A stretch of DNA of 64,000 nucleotides from Candidatus Lernaella stagnicola (GCA_030765525.1 JAVCCK010000010.1:450441-514440); one strand, 5' to 3'; positions 1,699 through 17,555 are shown, counted from the first letter of the stretch. The notes: generated by a model from the sequence alone, not told the origin. Numbers and translations: made by a program.

Positions 1699-1904
1699 CC
1701 AGCGACCGTCTAGTTAGCGGCGTTGCGATTATTTCGATATTGTGACCGCCACCGGCCAAAAGACCATGGAAATTTTCAAGCGTTACGACACGGTGTCGAA
1801 GAAAGACCTCAAAACCCTCACCGCCGCCGAAGAAAAAGGCGAAGTTGATCCATAGTCAGGTAAAGGACTATAAAACAAGGAAAACCTACCGCGAGGCGAA
1901 GGAC

Positions 1905-4900
1905 ATGCCGGGAGTTGAATTGAATCGCAGTTTTATTGACATCACGGATTCACATCAGGAACCCGACGTCCGGATGATGGCGAGTATCCTGCAGCAGCTG
2001 GACCGCGCTCTGAATTGGACTGGCGTGTTACAACACAAGTACGCTGTCATTCTTGGTGAAGCCCTATCCGGAAAGACGTGGGAGTTTCGGAGACAAACCG
2101 AGCGGATTAACAGTAACGGCGGTGACGCATTCTTTTTCCTTCTCCGATCTTTGGCAAACGGCGACTACGAAGTTGCCTTGAGCGGCCCAGAGGAAGGCGA
2201 AAAATTGGAGAAGTGGAAAAGCTCAAATGGCGAAGCTTATTTTTTCTTGGATTCGCTTGATGAAACGAAAATTGCAGGAAAGAGCCTGGACCTCGCATTA
2301 CGCCACTTCGAGAACCGACTCGGCGCCAGCATCAATCGAGCACGTGTCTACATTTCGAGTCGATTTTCGGATTGGAGGCCTAACGCCGATCTCGAAATAC
2401 TGAACGAATTTATAGAAAAAGTGGACAAAAAGAGTGACGGAATTGAAAACGACCAACATCAAAACGGCAACAGAGAATTCACCGCCCGAGTATTTCATCT
2501 TGGATGGTTGAACAATGAACAGATCCGGACAGTGGCTGAGTTCGAGACAAAGCGAGACGCGACAGGCTTCGCTGCGGCTGTGTACCGGGAAGGGGTTTCT
2601 GAACTCGTTGCCAGACCCGGGGACGTGCGATGGGCTGTACGCTTTTGGACAGAAAAAGGGCGCTTCGGCAGATATTCAGAAATAATTGAACACAATATCC
2701 AGCAGCGTCTTCAGGAACGAAGAGAGTTGGTTGAAAGCCTTTCGCCGCAAGAGTGTCAGGCGGCAGTCGAAGACTTAGCGCTCTTCGCGACTATGACGGG
2801 CTCCTTTTCTTTTCAAGTTCCTGATCATGGATCTTTTGCGGGAGAAATCGGGCAGCCGGTCAATGCGAGTGACATACTACAGTCTTGGAACAACGAAAAA
2901 ATTGGCCGGTTGTTGAGGCTGGCAATATTTGACGTGGCAACATACGGACAGGTGAAGTTCCACGTGCGTCCGGTTCAAGAGTATCTCGCGGCCATGTCGC
3001 TGAAGGCGAAGTTCTCCGATGGTGTGGGTCAGAAAGAGATCGAACGTCTTTTCTTCGTCCAGAGTTTTGGAGCGACCGTAGTGCCGCGGCACCTTCACGA
3101 AACAGCAGCTTGGTTGGCAATAAAGATCGATTGGTTTCGAGAGCAGCTGGCGGATATTGCACCGGAAATTTTGATTGACCTGGGAGACCCGTCTTCACTT
3201 CCGATAGATACAAAAAGAAAGCTCCTCCGAAAGTGGAATTTGAAAATGCGGGAGCGCCCATACCAATGGCAGTGGTTCGGCGTCCACTCGTTGCGCCGGT
3301 TTGCTTCCGAAGAACTCGTGCCGGAAATCAACGAAATGCTCCTTTCCGAGGAAACTCATCATCTTGCGAAACGAACCCTGTTGTCGTTGGCGGACGACGG
3401 TGGGCTTCAAGGAGCAGTGAAATCGTGCCTCGCATTGTTGAAAAACCGTCGTGAAAGGGAAATGCTAGGGGATTTGGCTTGTGACGCCGTTTGCGCCAAT
3501 GGAAGCCGCTCGGAGAAGAGGGAGCTTGTGGAAACCGTCCTCGGGTTCCAAAACGTGCAATATGCAATTTCAAACAGTGTTGCAAAGCGGTTATTTCCGG
3601 AAGTTCTGAAGCGAGAAGAATTGGTCGAAGTGATTAAAAAGACACGGCCTTTTCCGGATGAGAACACAACGACGTATTTCGAATTGTTTTTGGAAAACCA
3701 ACTCCCTGAAAAATGCGACGTAGAAACGGCTAAGTTTATCCTCAGGGAGTTCGTGTTCAAGGCCAAAGCCGATGCGGGAACTAATGAGCGATGGAGGCTA
3801 TGCCAGGAAGCGACAAGATGGACTGAGCGCATTGTGACTGGCTTGCTGGTAAAATTACTTGAAAACACAGAAAACACGGAGGAAATCGAAAACGCTCTGA
3901 TCGCATTTAGAAACGAAGACACGCACGTGAGTTCGAGAAGACAGGCCTTGTTCAAACGTGTGGCGGAGGCATTGAAAGCGAATGCCGGGTGCAGGAGAGC
4001 GTTGTTTTGGCGGAACGTCGCTCAGGTACCAGAATCTGAAAGGAGCGGCCCGCCATACTACCGCAATTTGAATTACCCGTTCAGAATCTTCCATTTGGAT
4101 GAGTGGGACACCGATTGGTTGCTAGAGGATGCGGCAAGAAAAGAAAAGCGTTTAGATCGCCTTGTGGCATTCGAACTTGCATTGTGTTTTCTCGGACGTG
4201 TCAAAAACCTGAAGGCCGACCCCCGCGTCGAGGAATTAAGAAGGCAACACGTGGAACTAGATGCGCGGTTTATGCGTTTTACGAACCCAAAGCCGTCTAA
4301 TAGTTTCATGAAGACGCCCAGTCAGCGAAAAATTGAAATGTACGAAAGGAGAGATAAGGCAAAGCGTGAGGCAATGAAGAGCAGAACTGCGGAAATCGAA
4401 AAAGCCGCCGATGAGGAAGCTCTCCAGGAGCTCTATATCTATTGCCTCCAGAGAGTCATAAAAACGCAACTTGGCATCTCCAATCTGCGTCCGGTCATCG
4501 AGGAATACGGCGAAGAAACAGCAAACGCCGTCAAAGAGGGCGCTAAACGTTTCTGGAGGAAGCACCCCGTTCAAAAATTGACGTGCGGTAGTGTCGGATT
4601 GGCGTTGACGGGCTTGCTGTTCGAATTCCTTGGCGGATTGGATTTCGCGAGCATGCCGGAACCGGATGTGGCCATTGCGACAGAGTTAGCTTTGGAAGAG
4701 AAAAACGAGTTCCCACCTTGGTTCGAGAATTTACTTGAAACAAGACCGGGAATCGTGAAACCGCTTGTATCGAGAAGCTTGGAGGAGGAATTCACCAAAC
4801 CCGAAGAAAGCCGCCCCCGGCGCCCAAATATCGAGAAAGTGCGTAAAGCTAGTTCAACCGTCCGATCAGTTTTTGAGGAGCAGATTTTCAATTTGTTGAA

Positions 4901-6044
4901 AACATCGGCGCCGCTTTCAACCGAAACACTGCAAAATGTCCTCGGAATCCTGGTTGATTCGGTTGAAGTGGACTGCGAAGACCTTTCAGCGAGGATTATT
5001 GTGCTTGCGAATGAATTCAGGCATTCACGAGATTCCTTTGTTCCTTTGTGGTGTGTGTTGTTTTGCGTAAGACCAAGTCATGCGATTGAAATGTGGGAAA
5101 GCATTAACTCAACTACCAGTGACGACGAAATCGACGATCTTAAACACGAAATATGTAAATTCCTGAGTTTCTGGTCCAATGGACTTTGGCCGACTGAGTT
5201 TCCCAGAAACGATGCGAAACAATTGGGGTTTCTGATTGCGGGGTTGCACCCCGATGATAAATCCACGAATGACGACTACTACGCGCGCCACTTTTTAAAC
5301 GACGTGGAAAAGTGGCTTTGGAACACGAATTCGGAAACGACTGTCGCAGTATTCCGCGAATTGTCGGAAAAGCCGTTGTTTCAGCATCGGAAGTATGAAT
5401 TCCTCAGGAGTGCAGAAACGAAAGCACGGGAAGTTGGGAGTTGTCGGCCGTTCAGCATGGCACAGGTGAGAGATTGGTTGGGCAAAAAGAGTTTCGAACC
5501 ACTTTTACCAGGCCAGCTTTTCCGAATCGCGAAGTGGCGAATAGAAGAGGCAAAAGCTGCAATTGAGAAAAACAGGTTCAGCCTTCGCAATGAACTCAGG
5601 GAAGGCGATGAAGCCGGATTCCAACGATGGTTGGCAAACGCCCTTGAAACGAACAGCCACGGCCATTTCTCTGTTGTGCGCGAAGAAGAGGTCGACCAGA
5701 GGAAGAAACCAGACATCCGCCTTCATTCGACCAGTTTCATGTCGCCGATCGGTATCGAAATGAAAATCGCGGACAATTGGACTGGGCCCAAATTGGCGGA
5801 GCGCCTAAGAAACCAACTAGTTGGTCAATATCTTTCTACACATGATGCTTTCTATGCGCTGTTCGTCGTCGCCTTCTTCGGACGGGGGAAAGAACGGTGG
5901 CAGATTAAAAGGGGGCACAATCTCGATTTCAGCGAACTGGTTGATGAACTCCGGGCGATCGCATCCGACATCGCAAAAGGAAATCCAGAAGTGTACGGTC
6001 TCGAGGTAATCGGAATCAATTTCCGGGATCCAAAAAAAGGTTAG
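1905..6044 (+). CDS. NACHT-type STAND NTPase (~1380 aa) with long alpha-helical middle region and C-terminal PD-(D/E)xK-like nuclease module
   Basis: Walker A AVILGEALSGKT. Walker B AYFFLDSLDE (NACHT-style DxxDE). Sensor RVYISSR. C-terminus carries ...EEEVDQRKKPDIRLHS-(12 aa)-IGIEMKIAD, i.e. PD...(D/E)xK spacing. Region 1700-6100 is markedly lower in GC than the flanks. ORF opens at TTG 1845; ATG 1905 (preceded by gaaggac) is taken as the start, which is uncertain. Confidence 0.7.
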   Translation: MPGVELNRSFIDITDSHQEPDVRMMASILQQLDRALNWTGVLQHKYAVILGEALSGKTWEFRRQTERINSNGGDAFFFLLRSLANGDYEVALSGPEEGEKLEKWKSSNGEAYFFLDSLDETKIAGKSLDLALRHFENRLGASINRARVYISSRFSDWRPNADLEILNEFIEKVDKKSDGIENDQHQNGNREFTARVFHLGWLNNEQIRTVAEFETKRDATGFAAAVYREGVSELVARPGDVRWAVRFWTEKGRFGRYSEIIEHNIQQRLQERRELVESLSPQECQAAVEDLALFATMTGSFSFQVPDHGSFAGEIGQPVNASDILQSWNNEKIGRLLRLAIFDVATYGQVKFHVRPVQEYLAAMSLKAKFSDGVGQKEIERLFFVQSFGATVVPRHLHETAAWLAIKIDWFREQLADIAPEILIDLGDPSSLPIDTKRKLLRKWNLKMRERPYQWQWFGVHSLRRFASEELVPEINEMLLSEETHHLAKRTLLSLADDGGLQGAVKSCLALLKNRREREMLGDLACDAVCANGSRSEKRELVETVLGFQNVQYAISNSVAKRLFPEVLKREELVEVIKKTRPFPDENTTTYFELFLENQLPEKCDVETAKFILREFVFKAKADAGTNERWRLCQEATRWTERIVTGLLVKLLENTENTEEIENALIAFRNEDTHVSSRRQALFKRVAEALKANAGCRRALFWRNVAQVPESERSGPPYYRNLNYPFRIFHLDEWDTDWLLEDAARKEKRLDRLVAFELALCFLGRVKNLKADPRVEELRRQHVELDARFMRFTNPKPSNSFMKTPSQRKIEMYERRDKAKREAMKSRTAEIEKAADEEALQELYIYCLQRVIKTQLGISNLRPVIEEYGEETANAVKEGAKRFWRKHPVQKLTCGSVGLALTGLLFEFLGGLDFASMPEPDVAIATELALEEKNEFPPWFENLLETRPGIVKPLVSRSLEEEFTKPEESRPRRPNIEKVRKASSTVRSVFEEQIFNLLKTSAPLSTETLQNVLGILVDSVEVDCEDLSARIIVLANEFRHSRDSFVPLWCVLFCVRPSHAIEMWESINSTTSDDEIDDLKHEICKFLSFWSNGLWPTEFPRNDAKQLGFLIAGLHPDDKSTNDDYYARHFLNDVEKWLWNTNSETTVAVFRELSEKPLFQHRKYEFLRSAETKAREVGSCRPFSMAQVRDWLGKKSFEPLLPGQLFRIAKWRIEEAKAAIEKNRFSLRNELREGDEAGFQRWLANALETNSHGHFSVVREEEVDQRKKPDIRLHSTSFMSPIGIEMKIADNWTGPKLAERLRNQLVGQYLSTHDAFYALFVVAFFGRGKERWQIKRGHNLDFSELVDELRAIASDIAKGNPEVYGLEVIGINFRDPKKG

Positions 6045-6145
6045 CCGCGCCTAAGAAAAACAGTGGACATCTATATGAACACCGGGGATTTTTCGGCACG
6101 AAAAAAGGGATCAGACCGAATCGCCTAACCCCTTGAAATCATTTG

Positions 6146-6230
6146 TGCCGGAGGTCGGAATCGAACCGACACGAGCGCAAGGCTCGCGGGATTTTGAGTC
6201 CCGTGCGTCTACCAATTTCACCACTCCGGC
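6146..6230 (-). tRNA. tRNA-Leu (anticodon CAA)
   Basis: Reverse complement GCCGGAGTGGTGAAATTGGTAGACGCACGGGACTCAAAATCCCGCGAGCCTTGCGCTCGTGTCGGTTCGATTCCGACCTCCGGCA folds as a class II tRNA with long variable arm. Anticodon loop CTCAAAA. CCA not encoded. Confidence 0.85.
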
Positions 6231-6283
6231 GAGATAAAAAAGAGCGAATGTGCAAACTGGCGAGTCATGCGCCTCATACAACT

Positions 6284-6356
<73 letters not shown>

Positions 6357-6429
6357 GAAACGGACGTTCTCTTTACCAAACTTCGCGTCAACTCGTCAAG
6401 CGTCAAACACCGGTGTTTCGCCTGTGTCC

Positions 6430-8409
6430 TCAGCCGTTTTGACCGCCGGCGCGACGCGACTTGGAGCGTTCACTAAGCGCGCGAATCACCTCTTCGTTGC
6501 GCTCGACCGGAATCGACTTCTGCGCCTGTTCGATCCAGGCCTGCAAGGTTAGGTCGGCCTTTTCGCCAACCAACTCATCGCGCAACTCATCGCGCTTGAC
6601 GCGGTATGCCGCGGGCGAAGGCTCGACGCGTTCTTTGAGCACTGCCACCACCACGCCGCTGCCCGCTTGGTAGGGCTTCTCGACCACGGGGCTGCCCGAG
6701 GTCAGCGCGAAGGCGGCGACTTGCAGTTCGGGCGCGGCGCCGACTTTCGGCACGGCGGTTTGCTGCCGCGCGAACAGACCGGTTTCTTGGATGTCCAAGC
6801 CGCGGGCGGTTGCGACGGCGTCGAATTTTTGGCCCGCGTTGAGCGCGGCGATGATCTGTTCACCCTTGGTTTGCAGGGCTTGTTGTTCAAGTTCTTTGCG
6901 TAGTTCTTCGCGCACCTTTTCGGCCACGTCGGCGAATTCCGGAATGTGTGATTCGACGATGTTGGTCAGCTTGAACAAGAATATCTGGTCGCCGGTCACG
7001 AAGGGCTCGCTGATGTCGCCGGTTTGAAGCTGGAACAGATCGATAGCGGCGCGACGGCCGTTGCGGATACCGGGCACGCCTTCGTCCTTCGTGAAGGTTG
7101 AGGTGGAGACAACTTTCAAGCCGCGGTCGTTTCCGAAGCGAAGGATATCGGCGCCGGGAGTGAGTTCGGCTTTGGCGGCGTCGGCGTCGGCTTTCGCCAT
7201 ACGTCGGGCCTCAAGTGTTTTCACCCGGCGTTCGATACGCGCCTTCACATCTTCCAGGGCCAGGATACTTTCCGCGCGCTTTTCCAGCGTTTCGATGATG
7301 TGGAAACCGTAGGGCGACTCGACCACGCCCGAGCGCTTACCCGGCTCGAGGCTGAAGGCGGTTTCTTCAAAAACCTTGACCATGCGGCCGCGACCGAAGA
7401 AGCCCAGGTCGCCGCCCTTGTCCTTGGTGCCAGGATCTTCGCTGTATTTCTTGGCGAGTTCGGCAAAGTCGCCGCCGTCTTTGAGTTGGTCAAGAATATC
7501 TTCGGCTTTAATGCGCGCCGCCTCTTTGAGGGCGGTGTCGGCGTCGGCGTCGACGTTGATCAGAATGTGGCGGGCGTGCGCTTGTTCGGGTTGCTTGAAT
7601 TCCCGGTCGCGGTTCGCCTCATAGTATTGCGTAATTTGCGCCTCGGAGATCACGACGTCTTCGACGTAGCTGGAAGCGTCGAATACGGCATATTCTGCCT
7701 TGCGCTTTTCGGGCATCTTGAAGCGCTCTTTATCTTTTTCGAAGAAAGCGTTGGCGCTCTCGTCGGTGACCTTAACCTCGCCTTTCACCTTGTCGGGCTC
7801 GAGTTTGACGAAGCGCAAGTTGACCTTCAGTTCGCGGTTATCGAATTCTTCCTGCACTTCGGATTCGGCAACCTTGACCGAGGAAAGTACGAGAGAGCGC
7901 AGTTTCTGCCCGAGCAGTTGGCGGCGCAAATCGGTTTCGTAATCCGTGGGGCTGACTTTCTGCCGGCGCAGGATTTGGATGTAGCGCTCGCGGTTGAAAC
8001 GCCCGTTCTGATAAAAGACGGGGTTCTTAACGATGGTGTTGCCGAGCTCCGCGTCGGTGACCGTCAGGCCCATTTGCAGGGCGAGGCTTTGAATGACGCG
8101 CTCGGTGATCAGCTTGTTCAGGGCGATGCCGGTCATGTCCATGTTCGCCAAGAAACTGTCGGCCGATTCGCCGAATCGATCGCGGTACATCTTGGCAATG
8201 CTTTGTTCGGTATTGACCAGTACGCGCGCGCCGATAGGCACACCGTCAACCTGGGCCACCCAAGCTTGCTTGTTTTGACCGCCACGACCGGCCGTGCGGC
8301 CGACGTACGACATGGCGCCGAAACCAATAATAAAGCTAAGCGCAACCGCGCCGAGGAGGATCTTGACAAGCAGCGACTGCTTGGATCGCCTTAAGATACT
8401 GAGAGCCAT
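6430..8409 (-). CDS. ppiD: periplasmic chaperone / peptidyl-prolyl isomerase PpiD (SurA-like N-domain plus parvulin PPIase)
   Basis: N-terminal membrane anchor. Parvulin motif HARHILINV...GGDLGFFGRGRMVKVFEETAFSLEPGKRSGVVESPYGFHIIE. 659 aa, typical PpiD size. Confidence 0.75.
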   Translation of the reverse strand: MALSILRRSKQSLLVKILLGAVALSFIIGFGAMSYVGRTAGRGGQNKQAWVAQVDGVPIGARVLVNTEQSIAKMYRDRFGESADSFLANMDMTGIALNKLITERVIQSLALQMGLTVTDAELGNTIVKNPVFYQNGRFNRERYIQILRRQKVSPTDYETDLRRQLLGQKLRSLVLSSVKVAESEVQEEFDNRELKVNLRFVKLEPDKVKGEVKVTDESANAFFEKDKERFKMPEKRKAEYAVFDASSYVEDVVISEAQITQYYEANRDREFKQPEQAHARHILINVDADADTALKEAARIKAEDILDQLKDGGDFAELAKKYSEDPGTKDKGGDLGFFGRGRMVKVFEETAFSLEPGKRSGVVESPYGFHIIETLEKRAESILALEDVKARIERRVKTLEARRMAKADADAAKAELTPGADILRFGNDRGLKVVSTSTFTKDEGVPGIRNGRRAAIDLFQLQTGDISEPFVTGDQIFLFKLTNIVESHIPEFADVAEKVREELRKELEQQALQTKGEQIIAALNAGQKFDAVATARGLDIQETGLFARQQTAVPKVGAAPELQVAAFALTSGSPVVEKPYQAGSGVVVAVLKERVEPSPAAYRVKRDELRDELVGEKADLTLQAWIEQAQKSIPVERNEEVIRALSERSKSRRAGGQNG

Positions 8410-8473: not shown

Positions 8474-9982
8474 TCAACCGCTCTGATCTGAGGTCGAACT
8501 CTCGTCGAATTCTGGCTCCGTGGCGTCGGATTCGGTTGTGTTTTGTTGCGCCGTCGAGACGAGGCGTTCGGCGTATTCGCGCTCGTCGGCACCCTGATAA
8601 ATTGTCGTCAGTACTTCGGGAATCAGCGGCATATAGCGGGCGAAGTGTTTCGTTAAATGTAAGTCCACCGCCTCCAGAAGTTGCTCGGGTGAAGTGAAGC
8701 CGCTGACGATTTCCCGTTTGCGTTTTTTCCAATAGTTGTACTCGTCGTCTTCCAGAAAGCGAATCACGCCCGCCCAGAAAAGCAGTTTTTGGATGGCGTA
8801 GATGGTTTTCTGGGTCAGTTCGTAATGCGGCAAACCGGCCTTAGCCAGAAACTCTTCCGCGTAGGGTCCGAGTAGGTATTCCTCCAACTCGTATTGACTC
8901 ATGGGGTTGCCGGGGCCGTTGATCCGGCAGATTTCGGAAATCACGGGCTTGGCGATTTCGCGGTTATACAAGTAGATACGCGGCGACCACAACGTTCGCA
9001 AATAATCCCCCCGCCGGATGTCTTTCGGATCCTGCGGGTAATCTTGCGGGTCGTCGTGTTGGAAAGCAAAATTCGAGGGTTGATCGTGGTCGCGGTCCGT
9101 GATGGTGACAATGGAGTCGTCGCCGCTCTGGCCGTCATGGCCGGGAACGTGCCCGTCTTCGGTGGCGGCCGGTCGCTCCGCGCTCTCAGCCCCGGCCTTT
9201 AGCCCTTGGCCGGCAAGCAGTTCGATTTTCATTTCCTGGAAACGATCGTCGTAGGTCAGGCGCACCACATCCTTGCAGGCTTCGAGAAACTCGCGGAAGT
9301 TGGCGAAACCCAAGTCGGCCTCATCAAACGATGGAGCCAACTGGATCATCTGCCAACGCAGCCATCGGCCGACGGCCGGGCGATCGGTGAAGCGGTGGCG
9401 TTGCATGGCGCGGGCGAGCAGATCCTTGGCCTCCTGCATATCCATGTCGCCGACGGTTTCGCGCAGCAGGTGCGGATTTTCCGTGGCGATGGTGCGATAG
9501 AAGCGGAATAGGTTGCAGGCGCGCACGAGGTGATCGCTGGTGTGTTGGCGCGTGCCGATCCCCACGACTTTCTTGCCGTATTTGCGCAAATTGAGAATAA
9601 GGCCGGTATAGTCCGAGTCCGACGCGACGATCACGTAGGTTGTGATGGCCGGAAACGTAAATAGCGTTTCCATCGAGTCGGCGGTCAGACGGATATCAGC
9701 CGCATTTTTGCGCTGGGTGCCGCGTGTATAAATTTGGACGAGGTCGACGTTGTTCCCCAATAGATTGTACATATGAGGATTCACATAATGCCAGTTGGAG
9801 TAGGCTTTTTTGATGGCGACCCGTCCAATGTTTTGGTCGACGTACTCAAGAACCTTGCCGATTTGAAAGGGTTCTTCACCGGTCTCTTCGACGGTCAACC
9901 GCATGTTCTCAAAATCGATGAACACGGCAGCAGTTTCCTTGCCAGGGTTGAAGAGCAAAGGAGCCTCGGTGTCGTTAAACAT
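8474..9982 (-). CDS. NYN (LabA-like) ribonuclease-domain protein with C-terminal OST-HTH/LOTUS-like region
   Basis: NYN motifs VFIDFENM, KNAADIRLTADSMETL, VIVASDSDYTGL, GKKVVGIG. Basic/acidic C-terminal extension. Confidence 0.6.
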   Translation of the reverse strand: MFNDTEAPLLFNPGKETAAVFIDFENMRLTVEETGEEPFQIGKVLEYVDQNIGRVAIKKAYSNWHYVNPHMYNLLGNNVDLVQIYTRGTQRKNAADIRLTADSMETLFTFPAITTYVIVASDSDYTGLILNLRKYGKKVVGIGTRQHTSDHLVRACNLFRFYRTIATENPHLLRETVGDMDMQEAKDLLARAMQRHRFTDRPAVGRWLRWQMIQLAPSFDEADLGFANFREFLEACKDVVRLTYDDRFQEMKIELLAGQGLKAGAESAERPAATEDGHVPGHDGQSGDDSIVTITDRDHDQPSNFAFQHDDPQDYPQDPKDIRRGDYLRTLWSPRIYLYNREIAKPVISEICRINGPGNPMSQYELEEYLLGPYAEEFLAKAGLPHYELTQKTIYAIQKLLFWAGVIRFLEDDEYNYWKKRKREIVSGFTSPEQLLEAVDLHLTKHFARYMPLIPEVLTTIYQGADEREYAERLVSTAQQNTTESDATEPEFDESSTSDQSG

Positions 9983-10332
9983 GATTTCCTCTCCTTAAAA
10001 AATATTTAGAAAGAACAGATGCCCCGTGCCCTAACCTAAGACAAAACGAGAATCTGTCAATCCGATAAAAGCTCTTTTCGACAAGTTAGCGGAGGCCGGA
10101 GGAAAAGATCGGGAGGCGTCTTTTTTGTTTGTTTCTTATAGGTTACCGGTCAACGAGCGATAACCGGCGGCCCGAAAAGAGTATAAAGATAACTTCTCAA
10201 AGCCCGATGGGTGCACGAATAAGACGACGCATCGGCGATTAAATCTCACCGGACGATGGGGCAGGCACACTTCCTCAGCGAAGCGCAATAGGTCAATAAT
10301 AGCATAGAATATACCACTAATGAAATAATGCG

Positions 10333-10362
10333 TTGACAAATACCCCATTACTGAAATATAAG
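10333..10362 (+). promoter_or_regulatory. sigma70-like promoter candidate (TTGACA-18-TATAAG) upstream of the ABC transporter operon
   Basis: cgTTGACAaataccccattactgaaaTATAAGc lies ~50 nt upstream of the permease start. Confidence 0.35.
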
Positions 10363-10410
10363 CATGCATGTAGTGAATGTTACCCTCTGTTTTTAACATC
10401 GAAGGGCGGG

Positions 10411-11208
10411 ATGCGTTTGCAGCTTGTAAGAACAGCGGGACGTCGGGCGATCGGCTATTTCGTTGCCGCCGCCGCCCTTGGATTTTTCGTGTTGATCTCC
10501 GAGGTCGCGCTCAAGTATTTCGAAGTACCAGTCTACCTGCTGCCGCGACCCAGCCAAGTAATCAACGAAATCATTCAACATTTCGGTTACTACCTGACGC
10601 AGACCAGCGTTACGATGCTCGAGGCTGCCTCCGGCTTCCTGGTTGGCAATACAATCGCGTACGGTTTGGCGCTGTTTTTTGTACGCTTTCCCTCTGTGGA
10701 GAAAATGGGGCTGGCGGCGGCGGTCGCGGTGAAATCGACGCCCATCGTCGTTCTGGCGCCGCTGTTTATCATCTGGTTCGGCAACGGCTTGTTCGGCAAA
10801 TGCCTGATGGCTGCACTGATCTGCTTCTTTCCCATGCTGGTGAACTCCACGGTCGGATTGCGCTCGGTCGACCCGGATATTCTGAATTACCTGCGCAGTT
10901 TGGGTGCGACACCAACGCAGACTTTGCTCAAGGTGCGTATCCAAACCTCGTTGCCCTATGCGCTTGCCGCGGCCAAAGCCTCATCGACGATCTCGATAGT
11001 CGGGGCGATTGTCGCCGAATTGGCCGGGTCCGACGCCGGGGTCGGCTACATTTTCCTCATGTCTATCTATCGCCTGGAAACGGAAAAAATGTTCGCGGCC
11101 ATTGCCTTCGTGGCGATAGCCGGCGTTTTGTTTTACAGCTTGGTCAGTTTGCCGACACGAGTCTTGAGCCGACACGGTTGGGGTGATTACACAGCACGAA
11201 TGAGTTAA
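10411..11208 (+). CDS. ABC transporter permease, NitT/TauT (SsuC/TauC-like) family
   Basis: Six predicted TM segments. BPD_transp_1-like EAA-type loop (AASGFLVGNTIAYGLALFF...). ATG 10411 with GAAGGGCGGG upstream. Longer upstream ORF frame discounted. Confidence 0.7.
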   Translation: MRLQLVRTAGRRAIGYFVAAAALGFFVLISEVALKYFEVPVYLLPRPSQVINEIIQHFGYYLTQTSVTMLEAASGFLVGNTIAYGLALFFVRFPSVEKMGLAAAVAVKSTPIVVLAPLFIIWFGNGLFGKCLMAALICFFPMLVNSTVGLRSVDPDILNYLRSLGATPTQTLLKVRIQTSLPYALAAAKASSTISIVGAIVAELAGSDAGVGYIFLMSIYRLETEKMFAAIAFVAIAGVLFYSLVSLPTRVLSRHGWGDYTARMS

Positions 11209-11310
11209 CGGCGGGACCCGGGTCCGGGGAGTGCATTGGGCACGTATGGTTATTTAATGGGAAGCGATTCTTGAAGCAAGCATCGGTAATCTAGACGAAG
11301 GGGAAAGACA

Positions 11311-12390
11311 ATGGCGAGAAAAATGATGCAATCGGCCCTGGTTTTATTGTTGGCGTTTGCCGTGGTAGCGGCTCTCGGCGGCTGCAGCAAAGACAAGCCG
11401 GGCGCCACCCCGAAACCCGCGGTTGGTAAAGCGGCGCCCCAAGCTGCCGCCCCGGCCGAGAAGGCGTCGATCCGGTTGAAGTGGTTTGCTTACGGCAACT
11501 ACGTGGGCTCCTACGTCGCGAGAGACAGCGGCATTTGGAAGAACCTCGGGCTCGATGTCACCGTACATGAGGGCGGCCCGCAACTGGATTCGTGTACGAT
11601 GGTCGTCACCGATTCAGACCAATTCGGTATTGCGAGCCCCGATCAACTTTTGATCGCGCGGTCGAAGGGCCAGCCGGTTGTCGCCGTGGCGGCGCTGATG
11701 CAGAAAACGCCGATAGGCTTTTTGGTGCATGCCGACAGCGGCATCAAAGAGCCCAAGGATTTACTCGGCAAGCGCATGCGGTTCATCCCCGGGCACAACA
11801 GCGTGCACGAATACATGGCGATGATGAAATTGCACGGCCTGGATCGTTCGAAGGTGCGGGAGATCATCAACACGACCACTTTGCAGCTTTTCCTGAACCA
11901 CGAAGTCGACTTGGAACCCATCTACGTCAACTACCAGCCGCTCATCATGAAGAAGAGGGGCATTCCGGTAGATGTGTTCAAACCCTCGGATTTCGGCATC
12001 GACAGCTACGGCAATATCTTGGTCGCTTCCGAGAAGCTCGTGCGTGAGAACCCGAAACTCGTGACCCGCTTTATCAAGGGCTTGCTGGACGGTTGGCGCA
12101 AAACCCACGCCGATCCCGCGATGGCCGCGAGCCTTCTGGTCAAGCTGAAACCGAACTTGGACCCTGAAATCGAAGCCGGTATCGCGGCGGGCACTAAGGA
12201 ATTCATGGAGCGGGAAGACGGCCGCATGGGTTGGATGACCGAAGAAAAATGGAGCCACGTCATCGATCTGTTCCAACAAGGCGGCGTGATCGAGAAAAAA
12301 CCCGATCCGAAAACCGTGTTTACCAATCGCTTTATGGAAGAAATTTACGGCGCAGCCCCGACCGCCCCTGCAGCGCCGCCCAAACCGTAG
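11311..12390 (+). CDS. ABC transporter substrate-binding lipoprotein, NMT1/THI5-SsuA-like
   Basis: Lipobox LGGCSKD with Pro/Ala-rich linker. NMT1/THI5-like periplasmic binding fold (IRLKWFAYGNYVG...). Cognate to the flanking permease and ATPase. Confidence 0.7.
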   Translation: MARKMMQSALVLLLAFAVVAALGGCSKDKPGATPKPAVGKAAPQAAAPAEKASIRLKWFAYGNYVGSYVARDSGIWKNLGLDVTVHEGGPQLDSCTMVVTDSDQFGIASPDQLLIARSKGQPVVAVAALMQKTPIGFLVHADSGIKEPKDLLGKRMRFIPGHNSVHEYMAMMKLHGLDRSKVREIINTTTLQLFLNHEVDLEPIYVNYQPLIMKKRGIPVDVFKPSDFGIDSYGNILVASEKLVRENPKLVTRFIKGLLDGWRKTHADPAMAASLLVKLKPNLDPEIEAGIAAGTKEFMEREDGRMGWMTEEKWSHVIDLFQQGGVIEKKPDPKTVFTNRFMEEIYGAAPTAPAAPPKP

Positions 12391-12417
12391 CCCGAAGCCG
12401 GCGAACAAGGCGGAGAG

Positions 12418-13248
12418 TTGCAGACTGCAACAAGACATACGCGCAGCAGCGCGATCGACGTCGCTGATCTGGTCGTGGATTATCCCGGCCTCAACGGCGA
12501 AGCCTTACGGGCCGTGGAACGCGTCGAATTCGCCGCGACTCCCGGTCGCCGGATCGCGTTGGTGGGCCCCTCAGGTTGCGGTAAATCGACAATTCTCAAG
12601 GCAATGGCCGGATTGCTGCGGCCCACCGGCGGCCGGATTCTCTTCGACGGTCTGGTGCCGCAAGCGGCCCGAGAGCAGAAGCTGTTCGGGTTGGTGCCGC
12701 AGCATCCGGCGTTATTGAAATGGCGCGTCGCGCGTGACAACGTCGCGCTTCCGTTGGAATTGAGCGGCGCGCGCAACGCCGCATCGCTGCGCCGGGTCGA
12801 CGAATTGTTGGAACTGTTCGGCTTAGACTCCTTCGCCAGATATTACCCGAACCAATTATCCGGCGGCATGCAATCGCGCGTGGCGATCGCGCGGGCGCTG
12901 GCGCTGGAGCCGGGCGCGCTGCTGCTCGACGAGTGTTTCGGCAGCTTGGATGAATTGACGCGGGAACGCCTCTACTGCGAACTCTCGCCCATGTGGCACG
13001 AACTGGGAACGACGTTGGTGCTCGTTACTCACTCACTAGCCGAGGCCATCTACCTGTCCGACGAGATCGTTGTGCTCACGTCTTTGCCGGCGCGGGTAGC
13101 CGGACGGGTGATTGTCGGCGCGCCGCAACCCCGGTCGGAAGAGTTCATTCAGAGCGAGGAATTCCTGGCGGCGATGTCGCGGGCCCGCGCTCTTCTGGGA
13201 TTGAGCGGCGACCCAGCAACTAAAAATTTATCGGAGGCGGTACCATGA
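12418..13248 (+). CDS. ABC transporter ATP-binding protein (SsuB/TauB-like)
   Basis: Walker A GPSGCGKST. Signature LSGGMQSRVAIARAL. Walker B LLLDECFGSLD. D-loop/ALTR-like ELTRERL. TTG start assumed. Confidence 0.7.
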   Translation: MQTATRHTRSSAIDVADLVVDYPGLNGEALRAVERVEFAATPGRRIALVGPSGCGKSTILKAMAGLLRPTGGRILFDGLVPQAAREQKLFGLVPQHPALLKWRVARDNVALPLELSGARNAASLRRVDELLELFGLDSFARYYPNQLSGGMQSRVAIARALALEPGALLLDECFGSLDELTRERLYCELSPMWHELGTTLVLVTHSLAEAIYLSDEIVVLTSLPARVAGRVIVGAPQPRSEEFIQSEEFLAAMSRARALLGLSGDPATKNLSEAVP

Positions 13249-14480
13249 TGGCCTCACAAAACCGGACGTTGGATCCTCGCGTTGCCGTCAAACATATTTT
13301 GGTCGAGCGGCAGGCGCAGCAAGAGTACTTGTCGCGGGTCGGAGGCGTCCTCGATCAGTTTCCCGGGCGGAAACCGACGTACGTCGACGACTTCGAAGCG
13401 ACGACGATCGCACGTGTTTTCCGCGAGCAGCTGGGTGAAGATCGCCCCCTGGCGGATGATTCGTCCGAAGCGGTGGGCATAGGCAAACGCGTACTGGCGA
13501 TCGGCGCCCGGCGCGACGGGCGGATCGTCGAAAAGTTTACCGATGAAAAGGGAATGATCTGCCACGGATTTCACTATCTGCACGTCATGGCCAACGGCTG
13601 CGTGTTCAATTGCCAATACTGTTTTCTGCACGGCTCCATCTGGGCGCGGTCGGTGCCCACGATCATCAAGCTGAACATCAACTACGAGGACATCTCCACG
13701 CGGATGCGAGAGATCGCAGCCGACAATTTACGTCAGGGCAAGTGCACGCGCTTCAACATGGGCGTAATGATGGATTCGTTCGCGTTCGAGCCGACGATCG
13801 GTTTTCTGCGATATATCATTCCGCTGCTGGGCCACGACGACTTCGCGGCGACCACGCTGATCCTGCTCTCCAAAAGCAACGAGATCACGGAGTTGCTCAA
13901 CGCGGCACGCCGCTATCCGTGGGCCACCAAACGAGTGCTACCCGGTTTCAGTGTGAATTCCGTAACGGCAGCCACGCGCTTTGAAGGCGGTACGGCCGGA
14001 ACGCATGCGCGCCTGGCGGCAGCGCGACAACTGCAATCCGCCGGCTATGCGGTTCGCTTGCGTATCGACCCCGTAATTCCCATCGGAGATTGGGCGACCG
14101 AATACAAGCACCTCGTCGATCTTATTTACCGGGAGTACGAAATCGACCCGCAACCCTTGCTCGTGGCATCGTTACGCTTTGACGACCCGCAGCCGATTAA
14201 CAGGGCGCGGGGGCGTTTTCCCTTCTCCCCCCTCTTTGATCTACCGCTTACCTTGGATGACGGCGCGAAATGGCGGCTGCCCTTCGATTTCCGGCGCGAA
14301 ATTTTCGCGACGATCATCGATTACATCCGTCGCATTGCGCCACAGCAACGGCTCGGCCTGTGCAAGGAAAAAGCCGCGACGTGGAAGACCCTGGGCCTGG
14401 ACCCTCGCCCCACCTGCGGGGCTTCCGATTGCTTGGAGCCCCCGTCCGGCGCCGCGGTCGTCGAGCCCGACCAACCGTAA
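13245..14480 (+). CDS. radical SAM enzyme, SplB-like (spore-photoproduct-lyase / COG1533 family)
   Basis: CxxxCxxC radical SAM motif in MANGCVFNCQYCFLHG. ATG overlaps the upstream ATPase stop (ATGA), implying translational coupling. Confidence 0.6.
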   Translation: MMASQNRTLDPRVAVKHILVERQAQQEYLSRVGGVLDQFPGRKPTYVDDFEATTIARVFREQLGEDRPLADDSSEAVGIGKRVLAIGARRDGRIVEKFTDEKGMICHGFHYLHVMANGCVFNCQYCFLHGSIWARSVPTIIKLNINYEDISTRMREIAADNLRQGKCTRFNMGVMMDSFAFEPTIGFLRYIIPLLGHDDFAATTLILLSKSNEITELLNAARRYPWATKRVLPGFSVNSVTAATRFEGGTAGTHARLAAARQLQSAGYAVRLRIDPVIPIGDWATEYKHLVDLIYREYEIDPQPLLVASLRFDDPQPINRARGRFPFSPLFDLPLTLDDGAKWRLPFDFRREIFATIIDYIRRIAPQQRLGLCKEKAATWKTLGLDPRPTCGASDCLEPPSGAAVVEPDQP

Positions 14481-14496
14481 TCGAAAGGAGACGACA

Positions 14497-14793
14497 ATGA
14501 TTGTCAAACTAGAGATCGCTTATTTGCCGGAGTATTCGCCGGAAATGGGCAAACGGTTCAAACAGGAAATCCAGTGGCCTGCGGGCGTCGTCATGCGCGG
14601 CCCCTATCTTTACCCCGTTATCAGCGAGGGTAAGCGTGCCCTGTTCCTGTTCGAATTCGACAAAGCGCGCATGGGCGAGGCGATGGACGCCATTCGCGTA
14701 TACCCGCTTCGCTTTTACGGAATGCCGGGCTTCAGCTACTCGCTGCAAATCTGTATCGAGGCTGTCAGCGAAGCGCGGGATTTCATGCCCTGA
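14497..14793 (+). CDS. hypothetical small protein (98 aa)
   Basis: Perfect RBS AAAGGAG 7 nt before ATG. MIVKLEIAYLPEYSPEMGKRFKQEIQWPAGVVMRGPYLYPVISEG... No recognised domain. Confidence 0.5.
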   Translation: MIVKLEIAYLPEYSPEMGKRFKQEIQWPAGVVMRGPYLYPVISEGKRALFLFEFDKARMGEAMDAIRVYPLRFYGMPGFSYSLQICIEAVSEARDFMP

Positions 14794-14834
14794 CAACGGT
14801 CGCAGTCGACCGAATCAGCAAGCGCGAGGTAACG

Positions 14835-16277
14835 ATGAACGAGACAATTGCCACGTTGTTTATCAACGGCGAATGGCGGCGGACCGACCGCGTCTTCATG
14901 GTGGACGACCCCGCCACGTCCGAACCGTTTGCCGCGGCTTCCGATGCCGCTTCCGATGACGTGCGTGCGGCGATTGCCGCGGCGTACGATGCGTTTCCGG
15001 AGTGGTCGCAAACCACGCCGCAGAAGCGGGCCGACATTCTGCTCGAAATCGCGCGCCGGATGCGGGCGAACAAAGAAACGCTGGCGACCATCTTGACCCG
15101 CGAAAACGGCAAGCCATTGGCCGAATCCCGAGCGGAAATCGATTTCGGCATCGGGTTCTTCATCTGGTTCGCCGAAGAGGCTAAGCGAGCCCGCGGCGAA
15201 ATTGTTCCCAGCAATGCGCCCGGTAAAAGACGGCTAGTGATTCGCCAACCGCTGGGAGTGATCGCGGCGATTACCCCGTGGAACCTGCCCGTTGCCATCC
15301 TGGCCCGCAAAGTCGCGCCGATTCTCGCCGCCGGTTGCACCGCGGTCGTTAAACCCGCCGAGCAAACCCCGTGTACCGCGATTGAGATGTTTAAAATTTT
15401 CGCGGCCGCCGGCCTACCTGCGGGCGTGGCGAATTTAATTACCGTCGCCGACCCGTCGCCGGTGGGTAAGGAGTTCGTTGCCAATTCCCGCGTGGCGAAG
15501 ATCACGTTCACCGGTTCCACGGCGGTGGGGCGGGAACTAGCGGCCGGGGCGGGGCGCCAACTCAAGCGCGTTTCTCTGGAATTAGGCGGGCACGCGCCGT
15601 TTATCGTTTTCGCCGACGCCGATGTGGATCACGCCGTGCGCCAATTGGTTGTCTCGAAATTCCGCAACAGCGGCCAAACCTGCCTATGCGCGAACCGCAT
15701 TTTCGTTCACGAAGAAATACTGGACTCGTTTTGCCGCAAGCTCGTGGCCGCCGTGCAAGATCTTCGCGTTGGGGGCGGTCTGTCGCCGGAGACGGATATC
15801 GGCCCCATGATCGATCGCGACGGATTCGACAAGGTGCGGCGGCATGTCGAGGACGCCATCCAAGCCGGGGCCGAGTGCCTCGCGGGCGGCCGCCCCGTCG
15901 AGGTTCCCGGCTGGGAACGCGGGCTCTTCTACGCGCCGACCGTGTTGAAATGCGCCACCGAGGACCTAGTCGTCTGCCGGGAAGAAACCTTCGGCCCCGT
16001 GGCGCCGATTTTGGGCTTTACGGAGGAAGAGGCTGTGGTTCGGGCGGCGAATGATTCGGTATACGGATTGTCCGGCTACGTGTTCACCCGCGATTTGGGG
16101 CGCGCCGTGCGGGTGGCCGAGGCGTTGGAGTGCGGTGTCATCGGCGTGAACGACGGTTTGACGCCGGTACCCGAGTGTCCCTTCGGTGGCTTCAAGCAAA
16201 GCGGCATCGGCCGTGAGGGCGGCTGGCAGGGGTTGGACGAATGTCTGGAAACCAAATACATCACCGTCGCGTACTGA
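14835..16277 (+). CDS. NAD(P)-dependent aldehyde dehydrogenase (succinate-semialdehyde dehydrogenase-like)
   Basis: ALDH motifs ITPWNLPVAI, ELGGHAPFIV, catalytic Cys region NSGQTCLCANRIFVHE. 480 aa. Confidence 0.8.
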   Translation: MNETIATLFINGEWRRTDRVFMVDDPATSEPFAAASDAASDDVRAAIAAAYDAFPEWSQTTPQKRADILLEIARRMRANKETLATILTRENGKPLAESRAEIDFGIGFFIWFAEEAKRARGEIVPSNAPGKRRLVIRQPLGVIAAITPWNLPVAILARKVAPILAAGCTAVVKPAEQTPCTAIEMFKIFAAAGLPAGVANLITVADPSPVGKEFVANSRVAKITFTGSTAVGRELAAGAGRQLKRVSLELGGHAPFIVFADADVDHAVRQLVVSKFRNSGQTCLCANRIFVHEEILDSFCRKLVAAVQDLRVGGGLSPETDIGPMIDRDGFDKVRRHVEDAIQAGAECLAGGRPVEVPGWERGLFYAPTVLKCATEDLVVCREETFGPVAPILGFTEEEAVVRAANDSVYGLSGYVFTRDLGRAVRVAEALECGVIGVNDGLTPVPECPFGGFKQSGIGREGGWQGLDECLETKYITVAY

Positions 16278-16316
16278 TGCCGCAATAAGGCGTCGAATAA
16301 TTTGCCGGAAATGTTC

Positions 16317-17555
16317 TTACATCAAATGCGCGGTCAGGGTCACGTTGCCGATGCGTAGGCGGTCGCCGTTGTGCAATTGGACCTTCTTTGCCCGTTTGTC
16401 GTTGACGTACGTGCCGCCGCCCAGATCCTTGAGATAGAACGTCCCTTTTCGGTCGACCTTGATCCACGCGTGCTTCGGGGCGACGTCGGGGTAGGGTAGG
16501 TAGACGTCGCAGTCTTCCTGCGAGCCAATCATGGTGCGGCCGCCGGCGAAAGTGCCGGTGAGCACGAGGTTGTGAACCCGCGTACCCCCGTCGGGCTTTT
16601 CCTCAATGAGGCACGGATTGATCGTCGTGCTGATCAGGCGGCGATCGCGGACGTCGGCGTCGTGGAAGAAGCCCTGTTCCACCTCGTCCTCGAAGATTTC
16701 TTCCACTTCGGTAACGAGGGGTTCACCGTCTTCGCCGTATTCGATTTCTTCCTCGGCGACGATGCGGCCGCCGGCGAAGTCTTCTTCGGATACCGGCTCG
16801 TAGACTTCTTCCTCTTCGGCTGCGGCTTCGGCCGCTTCGGCTACCAATTCCTGCTCGACCTCTTCCCCGTATTTTTCCACGAGCTGGTCGGCGAAAACGG
16901 GCATTTGCAGGGTGTCGAGTTCCTGTAATTGAATTTCGACTTGTTCGATATCTTCGGCGGCGACGGTCACTTCTTTTTGAGCCGTTTCGATTTTTTGCCG
17001 GGCGCCGTCTTTGAGGCTTTCGTACTCGGCTTCGTTATCTTCGAACTCGCCGATTTCGGCGCGGAGGTCGATCTCTTCCAGTTCCGAATTGGCGGCTTCG
17101 ATTTCCTTTTCGAAGGCAGCACGTTGATTGCCCCGCGCGACGATGTAATCCTCGCATTCGGCCCTTTTGTCCGCGACCTGCTTCTGCCAATCGGTTTGGG
17201 CGACTTCGAGTTCGGCCGCGTATTTCTGTACGACTCGGTCGCGCACCGTTTCGGGTGTGACTAGATGGTGTGCGGCGTCTTCGGCGCGACGTTGGGCTTC
17301 TTCCTCGGCCTGGCGGCGGGCTTCTTCCTCCGCGGCGCGTCGCTCCGCTTCTTCACGTTCACGCTCTTCCTCGATGCGGCGCTGTACGTCGGCGATGCGG
17401 GCTTCCACGTCGATGGTCTTCTCGTCGATTTCGCCACGCAGCTTTTCGTACAGCTCGGGACGCACCTTGTCACGGCGCGCCTCGAGTTTCTGCATACGTT
17501 CGAGGTAGCTCTCCTTCTCCTGTTGGAGAGTCGCGAGTTCGTCCTGCAGACTCAT
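16317..17555 (-). CDS. FHA-domain protein with long Glu/Arg/Ala-rich coiled-coil N-terminal region
   Basis: C-terminal FHA-like GRTMIGSQEDCDVYL...HAWIKVDRKGTFYLKDLGGGTYVNDKRAKKVQLHNGDRLRIGNV. N-terminal REEAERRAAEEEARRQAEEEAQRRAE repeats. Confidence 0.6.
   Translation of the reverse strand: MSLQDELATLQQEKESYLERMQKLEARRDKVRPELYEKLRGEIDEKTIDVEARIADVQRRIEEEREREEAERRAAEEEARRQAEEEAQRRAEDAAHHLVTPETVRDRVVQKYAAELEVAQTDWQKQVADKRAECEDYIVARGNQRAAFEKEIEAANSELEEIDLRAEIGEFEDNEAEYESLKDGARQKIETAQKEVTVAAEDIEQVEIQLQELDTLQMPVFADQLVEKYGEEVEQELVAEAAEAAAEEEEVYEPVSEEDFAGGRIVAEEEIEYGEDGEPLVTEVEEIFEDEVEQGFFHDADVRDRRLISTTINPCLIEEKPDGGTRVHNLVLTGTFAGGRTMIGSQEDCDVYLPYPDVAPKHAWIKVDRKGTFYLKDLGGGTYVNDKRAKKVQLHNGDRLRIGNVTLTAHLM

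Follow-up and report, generated by a model that had tools for sequence, protein, structure and literature searches.

Candidatus Lernaella stagnicola, a member of the phylum Lernaellota from the anoxic zone of Ace Lake, carries a six-gene cluster that combines a small-molecule importer with a radical S-adenosylmethionine (SAM) enzyme of the spore photoproduct lyase (SPL) fold, a protein of 98 amino acids (aa) and an aldehyde dehydrogenase (ALDH). The cluster was analyzed in a 64,000-nucleotide (nt) stretch of the genome (GCA_030765525.1, JAVCCK010000010.1:450441-514440), hereafter referred to as the window, in which it occupies positions 10411-16277. The importer with its binding protein, the SPL-fold radical SAM enzyme, the small protein and the ALDH have been inherited as a set in six uncultured bacteria that are unrelated to one another, and the best explanation for this gene set is a rare, import-coupled pathway that has not been described before. 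In the general scheme that we favor, which we hold to have slightly less than an even chance of being correct, an imported organic anion would undergo a radical lyase-type step and the resulting acidic aldehyde would be oxidized to an acid. Proteins of the SPL family (COG1533) routinely receive the annotation "DNA-repair photolyase". A link between one such enzyme, small-molecule import and aldehyde oxidation had been proposed in a first-pass annotation of the window; this link is well supported, both by scores that place the enzyme outside of SplB and by a gene neighborhood shared among six loci.

All six open reading frames (ORFs) of the cluster lie head to tail on the + strand, and five of the six have a significant family match. 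They encode a permease (10411-11208; BPD_transp_1, E 9e-21), with an in-frame TTG at 10333 as an alternative start; a binding lipoprotein (11311-12390; PF09084 NMT1/THI5-like, E 2e-47) with the lipobox LGGC; an ABC ATPase (12418-13248; ABC_tran, E 2e-29) with a TTG start; the radical SAM enzyme (13245-14480; PF20903 SPL, E 1e-18), with the motif C119-x3-C123-x2-C126; the 98-aa protein (14497-14793), which has no Pfam or NCBIfam match; and an NAD(P)+-dependent ALDH (14835-16277; Aldedh, E 1e-165) that resembles succinic semialdehyde dehydrogenase (SSADH). Three signals were read directly from the sequence, i.e., the ATGA at 13245-13248 that is shared by the ATPase stop codon and the radical SAM start codon, a GGAGG located 7 nt upstream of the radical SAM start, and an AAGGAG that serves the 98-aa ORF as ribosome-binding site (RBS). 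The remaining intergenic gaps measure, in gene order, 102, 27, 16, and 41 nt. The first-pass annotation had described a NitT/TauT-type importer with a THI5/SsuA-like lipoprotein, a radical SAM gene whose ATG overlaps the ATPase stop, a small ORF driven by a strong RBS, and an ALDH gene, the last two following at short distance; all of these elements were recovered where it had placed them. On its upstream side, the cluster is flanked by genes for a PpiD-like rotamase and an NYN/LOTUS protein, on its downstream side by genes for an FHA protein and TruA; all of these are located on the opposite strand, and the six genes thus represent a self-contained transcription unit; terminator-like sites within 10411-16277 are not more common than in shuffled sequence. 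The region 10411-16277 is a genuine operon.

A search of 5.8 billion proteins with the radical SAM enzyme yielded 21 relatives, none of them informatively named and only about seven at 38% identity or more. Contigs carrying these relatives, together with contigs carrying homologues of the small protein, led to five further independent loci, with radical SAM enzymes 42-48% identical to that of the window. A permease, an NMT1 binding protein, an ATPase, two SPL-like proteins, two 99-aa proteins, a methyltransferase and an ALDH are encoded at locus L001/L002. Locus L004-L007 encodes two SPL-like proteins, a porin, the permease, NMT1 binding protein and ATPase, a 218-aa fusion of two small-protein types (a and b), a methyltransferase, the ALDH, an Fe-S protein and a 96-aa protein; its gene order differs from that of L001/L002 and its gene set is the same. 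The same core is present at L009/L010, where there are three SPL-like genes and the cluster is interrupted by a second ABC importer. L012 comprises genes for a permease, an NMT1 binding protein, an ATPase, a single SPL-like protein, small proteins of 103 and 100 aa, a methyltransferase, an ALDH, an Fe-S protein and a 107-aa protein. The gene set recurs at L013, with two radical SAM genes and with the small proteins present as a 209-aa a-b fusion. Binding protein, radical SAM enzyme, small protein and ALDH are thus found in six of six loci. As the G+C content of the loci ranges from 0.52 to 0.68, they come from different lineages, and with five other independent loci repeating the gene set, the association of these genes goes far beyond chance.

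The clade is very rare. L013 represents the only match among 185,579 species-representative genomes, the other members being confined to a handful of metagenomic contigs, and a metagenome scan with the radical SAM profile detected only the Lernaella population itself and relatives with 26-32% identity that lack the partner genes. None of the partner genes was found at six loci that encode radical SAM relatives at 32% identity or less. The paper describing the Lernaella genome does not mention the cluster; our literature searches found no description of the cluster, the radical SAM clade or the small-protein family, and nothing relevant on SPL-like enzymes in small-molecule operons.

The radical SAM enzyme belongs to the SPL superfamily (PF20903, 67.8 bits against a gathering threshold of 27 bits) and falls far short of the curated families related to SPL. 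Against TIGR04070 (SplB), it scores 77.8 bits with a cut-off of 400, over profile positions 56-255 only, and other members of its clade score 69-90 bits; TIGR03886 (lyase_spl_fam, 32.4 vs 437.55), NF038135 (Rv2578c, 17 vs 430), and NF033668 (PA0069, 12.9 vs 360) are likewise missed. An AlphaFold2 model built from 19 sequences (predicted local distance difference test [pLDDT] 87, predicted template modeling score [pTM] 0.89) was compared with the Protein Data Bank (PDB) by Foldseek; the best match was the SPL of G. thermodenitrificans (4FHC; E 4e-20, target-normalized TM score 0.80, 20% identity), followed by SuiB at E 5e-5, which leaves SPL as the sole strong relative. Residue correspondences were taken from profile and pairwise alignments to SPL chains, with roles as described for SPL (PMC3467042). 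Tyr96 (Y125 in the window enzyme) and the SAM-binding residues Lys174 (K210) and Ser195 (S236) are kept, and Arg273 is probably kept as R311, according to the profile alignment only. By contrast, the hydrogen donor of SPL, Cys140 in G. thermodenitrificans and Cys141 in B. subtilis, is replaced by Val174 in the window and by V, I, or E in the other clade members, and Tyr98, which takes part in the radical relay (PMC3467042), is replaced by Phe127, with a Phe in almost all members of the clade; among PDB chains, the corresponding Y98F mutant, 4K9R, scores best. With both residues replaced, the hydrogen-return and SAM-regeneration relay of SPL is missing in the window enzyme. Three cysteines outside of the CX3CX2C motif, C106, C373, and C391, are invariant or nearly so within the clade, and could act as hydrogen-atom donor, as ligands of a second cluster or as a disulfide; C106 is located 13 residues before the cluster motif, near the alternative donor Cys77 of clostridial SPLs, a likeness of position only.

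An ordinary DNA-repair enzyme of SPL type that sits beside a transporter and an ALDH by accident would account for SPL being the one strong relative in structure and sequence, and for its architecture being kept. We nevertheless regard this explanation as extremely improbable, since the SplB score is one fifth of the cut-off, the enzyme lacks the catalytic residues Cys140 and Tyr98, its start codon shares bases with the ATPase stop, the neighborhood is kept in six loci, and isoelectric points in the clade are acidic to neutral (5.0-8.4) rather than uniformly basic as might be expected of a DNA binder. Canonical SplB function, or plain DNA repair, is largely refuted by these scores, lost residues, coupling and conserved neighborhood. 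Judged by its model and alignments, the enzyme is an SPL-fold protein with a conserved SAM- and cluster-binding core that lies outside of canonical SplB, and its substrate is very probably not DNA. Two outcomes had been set against the proposal in the first-pass annotation, a tight grouping of the enzyme with canonical SPLs and a gene set that is not conserved elsewhere. Neither was found; the TIGR04070 score, the 20% identity and the replacement of Cys140 and Tyr98 speak to the former, and the recurrence of importer, radical SAM enzyme, small protein and ALDH in five more loci, whose radical SAM enzymes are 42-48% identical to that of the window, speaks to the latter.

Evidence on the product of the putative radical step comes from the ALDH, whose nearest solved relatives are SSADHs and which scores 554.3 bits against TIGR01780 (SSADH), below the subfamily cut-off of 646. 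The six cluster ALDHs are 58-81% identical to one another (58-64% between the window and the others). A study of sulfolactaldehyde dehydrogenase provides a spacing rule for the arginines that bind a distal acid group, one located 8 residues after the oxyanion Asn and one located 6 residues before the catalytic Cys; in human SSADH (hSSADH) the pair R213/R334 binds the distal carboxylate, and in RlGabD the pair R171/R289 is proposed to bind sulfonate. In the window ALDH, R158 follows the oxyanion Asn N150 by 8 residues and R277 precedes the catalytic C283 by 6, with C283 and C285 forming a C-x-C pair, and none of the six cluster ALDHs has lost either arginine. Conservation of this arginine pair thus suggests, as the substrate, a short aldehyde that ends in an acid group; the pocket is predicted to suit a sulfonate, carboxylate or phosphonate better than a plain pyrimidine.

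The importer shows a complete NitT/TauT-type architecture, with a BPD_transp_1 permease, a binding protein of the NMT1/SsuA fold and a single ABC ATPase encoded together, and does not reach the equivalog cut-offs for SsuABC, TauABC or ThiXYZ (e.g., SsuA_fam 49 vs 163; taurine binding protein 18 vs 304). The best NCBIfam matches of the permease, SaoP, SsuC, TauC, and NtrB, are all far below their cut-offs. Among solved structures, the binding protein, which is 43-46% identical to those of the other clusters, is nearest to 4NMY (E 9e-25) and to ThiY 3IX1 (E 4e-17), with THI5 next; ThiY is the formylaminopyrimidine-binding protein of the ThiXYZ importer. In all binding proteins of the clusters, however, an invariant R.KW..YGNY stands in place of the ThiY motif DW.PN..H. 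Our best guess for the ligand is an organic anion; the sulfonate or pyrimidine-like substrate suggested in the first-pass annotation is likewise a guess.

These structural relatives of the binding protein raise the alternative that the cluster serves the salvage or breakdown of a heterocycle (pyrimidine, thiamine-pyrimidine-like or 7-deazapurine-like), in which ThiY-like uptake would be followed by cutting or rearrangement of a side chain by the SPL-like enzyme, with the ALDH clearing the aldehyde fragment. In addition to the proximity of the binding protein to 4NMY and to ThiY, which binds formylaminopyrimidine, and then to THI5, this alternative can draw on SPL itself, which acts on thymine rings in the form of the 5-thyminyl-5,6-dihydrothymine lesion in DNA (PMC3467042), and on the protein related to epoxyqueuosine reductase (QueG) and reductive dehalogenases (RdhA) that is encoded in the fuller clusters. 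The replaced ThiY motif, the arginine pair of the ALDH, with its indication of an acidic aldehyde, and the upstream region, in which no riboswitch was detected, all argue against it, as does the finding that genes of the thiamine, queuosine and pyrimidine pathways occur in none of the loci; we judge heterocycle salvage to be unlikely. Thiamine-pyrimidine salvage in particular was rejected, as the thiamine pyrophosphate (TPP) riboswitch and thiamine pathway genes are missing and the ThiY motif is replaced.

The 98-aa protein, which is identical to the hypothetical protein P9L99_06320 of the Candidatus Lernaella stagnicola metagenome-assembled genome, has homologues at 34-42% identity in all five other clusters. 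These homologues fall into two orthologous types, a and b, encoded by adjacent genes or as a single a-b fusion (218 aa in L004, 209 aa in L013), and the single Lernaella copy resembles type a slightly more than type b. The existence of fusions speaks for a dimer of a and b and implies that the small protein is probably dimeric in general, in which case the lone Lernaella copy would form a homodimer. An AlphaFold2 model (pLDDT 88.7) shows a beta-alpha-beta-beta-alpha-beta ferredoxin-like fold. No Pfam or NCBIfam model matches the protein or ten of its distant relatives, and a Foldseek search of the model against the PDB gave no significant match, only generic ferredoxin-like ones (TM score ≤ 0.53, E ≥ 0.007), the best plausible among them being IsdG, MhuD, LsrG, and methylmuconolactone isomerase at TM scores of about 0.45-0.5. 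When family profiles were compared by hhalign, a DUF3303 protein aligned weakly and in register (probability 31%), and no similarity to MIase and Dabb neighbors emerged. With the AAGGAG site, homologues in all five other clusters and a confidently predicted fold, the small ORF is a real gene, and it is the founder of an undescribed ferredoxin-like family, of which a profile search of 1.84 billion representatives identified 315 members at E ≤ 0.001.

Distant relatives provide context for this family. P0205 and P0203 belong to the same clusters as P0040 and P0041, for which E values of about 1e-26 to 1e-27 were obtained, and their neighbors are other small alpha+beta-barrel genes (ABM, Dabb, MIase and DUF3303). 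Tandem arrays of five to seven genes for proteins of about 100 aa were seen near distant homologues (L018, 2450-5296; L019, 1714-4560; L015, 9456-11283); their products are muconolactone-isomerase-like, DUF3303, ABM, Dabb or unassigned, and they look like paralogue arrays of alpha+beta-barrel proteins. From its modeled fold, we read the 98-aa protein as a putative divergent dimeric alpha+beta-barrel protein, one subfamily of which appears dedicated to this cluster.

One could also suppose that the small protein is itself the substrate of the radical SAM enzyme, through modification akin to that of ribosomally synthesized and post-translationally modified peptides (RiPPs) or as a carrier, with transporter and ALDH only loosely connected. 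Small genes always lie directly downstream of the radical SAM gene or genes, and the copies match in the window (1:1), in L001 (2:2), and, counting the fusion, in L004 and L013 (2:2); in L009 and L012, however, they are unequal. As the small protein represents a compact, confidently folded domain that is conserved over its full length without leader and core organization, the family is also widely found apart from radical SAM genes, as for the two distant members that were checked, and the transporter is a binding-protein-dependent importer and not an exporter, we consider such a role of the small protein highly improbable. A RiPP or other radical SAM peptide-modification system was rejected on these same features, i.e., a small protein that is folded and conserved throughout and a transporter that is an importer with a binding protein.

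Several of the other clusters encode additional proteins. A class I methyltransferase of about 300 aa is present in five of the six loci; profile searches against the PDB and NCBIfam returned only generic class I matches, with weak ones to CpaM and TehB. An Fe-S protein of about 300 aa is encoded in three of the six (L004, 13669-14565; L012, 12830-13699; L013, 11222-12163) and is 71-77% identical between loci, which exceeds the conservation of the radical SAM enzyme; its only relatives, all remote, are QueG and the RdhA proteins. Its partner of about 100 aa (L004, 14584-14874; L012, 13711-14034; L013, 12175-12501) matches no known family and shows 57-77% identity from locus to locus. The porin of L004 matches ExtI, a porin of selenite/tellurite operons (E 4e-20). 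No homologue of the methyltransferase, the QueG/RdhA-like protein, its partner of about 100 aa or the porin was found in the 64-kilobase window; since the methyltransferase, the QueG/RdhA-like protein and the porin are absent there, the Lernaella operon represents the minimal core. In L009, the inserted importer (2631-7479) consists of two BPD_transp_2 permeases, a double ATPase and a Peripla_BP_6 binding protein, and is accompanied by a 114-aa PAS_4 protein.

These additional genes are at the center of a further alternative, in which the system would process organometal(loid) or organohalide compounds (Se, Te, As, halogen), the methyltransferase, the radical SAM enzyme and the B12-type reductase-like protein carrying out the key chemistry and the ALDH handling the carbon skeleton. 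SaoP as the best NCBIfam match of the permease, along with matches to SaoX and SaoA, fits this alternative, as do the ExtI-like porin of L004, the high conservation of the QueG/RdhA-like protein in three loci and the weak resemblance of the methyltransferase to CpaM and TehB. All of these matches are, however, far below cut-offs and generic for their superfamilies, and Lernaella maintains its core without methyltransferase, reductase-like protein and porin, so that the accessory genes cannot be essential to the core chemistry; this alternative is therefore very unlikely. The methyltransferase and the reductase-like protein fit none of the schemes named here well, and a modest share of the overall probability falls to none of these schemes.

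In the anion pathway that we favor, a small organic anion would be taken up by the NitT/TauT-type importer and attacked by the radical SAM enzyme, with hydrogen abstraction by a 5'-deoxyadenosyl radical followed by a lyase-type step, either beta-scission or 1,2-elimination, for which the C-C scission of SPL and the reactions of radical dehydratases and deaminases may serve as models. The putatively dimeric small protein would probably act with or just after the radical SAM enzyme, and could be a subunit of it or an isomerase- or tautomerase-like helper. The product would be an aldehyde of about 3-4 carbons with a terminal carboxylate, sulfonate or phosphonate, which the ALDH would oxidize to the acid, e.g., succinate or 3-sulfopropionate. 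In a more far-reaching and rather doubtful version of this pathway, the SPL-like enzyme and its a/b ferredoxin-like partner would form a new radical SAM lyase complex and provide an oxygen-independent route for an organic anion abundant in the environment (a C3/C4 organosulfonate or phosphonate such as 2,3-dihydroxypropane-1-sulfonate [DHPS]), in place of the glycyl-radical or B12 enzymes used by other anaerobes; COG1533/PF20903 would then include enzymes of small-molecule catabolism.

A number of observations weigh against this pathway. The order of steps, and the formation of the aldehyde by the radical SAM enzyme, are assumptions. The binding protein is closest to pyrimidine-binding proteins of the ThiY type and not to solved sulfonate binders. 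SPL-family architecture is kept in the radical SAM enzyme, including a predicted beta-hairpin at residues 336-344, which makes a nucleic-acid-like or nucleotide substrate possible. The numbers of small-protein and radical SAM genes differ in L012 (two vs one) and in L009 (two vs three), and the two distant small-protein relatives that were checked, P0205 and P0203, have no radical SAM neighbor, so that the small-protein family need not be a dedicated radical SAM subunit. Finally, a simple scheme of import, lyase and ALDH does not explain the methyltransferase and the B12-type reductase-like protein.

The 428-nt intergenic region upstream of the operon (9983-10410), considered here in the direction of the + strand, contains no significant ORF and presumably holds the promoter and leader. 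An Rfam scan of 9900-16400 detected no family at E ≤ 1 and hence no riboswitch, be it TPP, NMT1-motif RNA or another, and alignment of the upstream regions of five loci revealed no clearly conserved leader and one weak short motif only. This motif (TAGTGAATG / TTATGRGTAAA) is located upstream of the first cluster gene in the window (about 10355-10375), L001 (about 7150), L004 (about 4130), and L013 (about 7450), and could be an operator or promoter element or a product of chance. Further upstream, a 1399-aa ORF without Pfam match (1845-6044) has a G+C content of 0.49-0.50, as compared to about 0.59 for the whole window, and two tRNA genes on the - strand (6146-6230 and 6284-6356) are located between this ORF and the PpiD-like gene. 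On the downstream side, the gene for the FHA-domain protein (16317-17555, - strand) converges on the end of the ALDH gene; the N-terminal part of its product is a long, acidic, Glu/Ala/Arg-rich coiled coil.

Overall, the data describe one clade of the SPL family that has been built into a nutrient-import operon with an ALDH and a new small-protein family; the bacteria concerned represent no fewer than six uncultured lineages of anoxic waters. The parts come from known superfamilies, and the logic of importer, radical enzyme and ALDH is familiar. If the chemistry were solved, it would provide a new reaction type for the radical SAM superfamily and a function for a new domain family of about 100 aa (315 cluster representatives), would correct what is likely a systematic misannotation as "DNA repair photolyase", and would possibly bring to light an anaerobic sink that takes up an acidic metabolite. 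With three soluble proteins and a binding protein, the system is compact, and its rarity limits its ecological weight and wider importance; the cluster offers radical SAM enzymology a solid lead that can be tested.

The components can be compared with known systems. SplB (TIGR04070, 4FHC) shares with the window enzyme the fold over its whole length, the CX3CX2C motif, the equivalents of Tyr96, Lys174, and Ser195 and probably that of Arg273; the window enzyme differs from it in the low identity of 20%, in V174 and F127, in the added cysteines C106, C373, and C391, in its translational coupling to an importer, with an ALDH and a small partner always present, and in a host that is not a known spore former. 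ThiXYZ with ThiY, SsuABC, and TauABC resemble the importer in their three-component architecture and in a binding protein of the NMT1/THI5 fold, whereas the window importer stays below every equivalog cut-off, has the ThiY ligand motif replaced and lacks a TPP riboswitch. With dimeric alpha+beta-barrel proteins (DUF3303, MIase, ABM, Dabb), the 98-aa protein has the predicted fold in common, and its distant relatives sit among genes of this kind; it differs in having no Pfam match and no significant PDB match, and by hhalign it is unlike MIase and Dabb.

At the level of whole pathways, the queuine lyase QueL, a radical SAM enzyme that acts on a free modified base, presumably offers a parallel and a point in favor of heterocycle salvage, in that it is perhaps also related to SPL and may serve a small molecule within a transporter-containing salvage operon; the literature consulted confirms its existence and role and does not confirm membership in the SPL family. 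QueL relies on an energy-coupling factor (ECF) transporter, with no ALDH or small partner protein reported, unlike the window operon. A precedent for the logic of the proposed pathway, i.e., radical elimination on an imported or derived organic anion followed by oxidation of the aldehyde, is the glycyl-radical DHPS dehydratase HpfG, which initiates the conversion of DHPS via 3-sulfopropionaldehyde to 3-sulfopropionate (PMC11489063); this is a functional analogy only, as the window encodes a radical SAM enzyme of the SPL fold and not a glycyl radical enzyme, and its ALDH is non-acylating and SSADH-like. That ALDH agrees with GabD and with SlaB/RlGabD in best sequence match, catalytic Cys, oxyanion Asn and both arginines, and with human SSADH in the CxC pair, and differs from SSADH in a score under the TIGR01780 cut-off and in forming an orthologous group of its own that is tied to the cluster.

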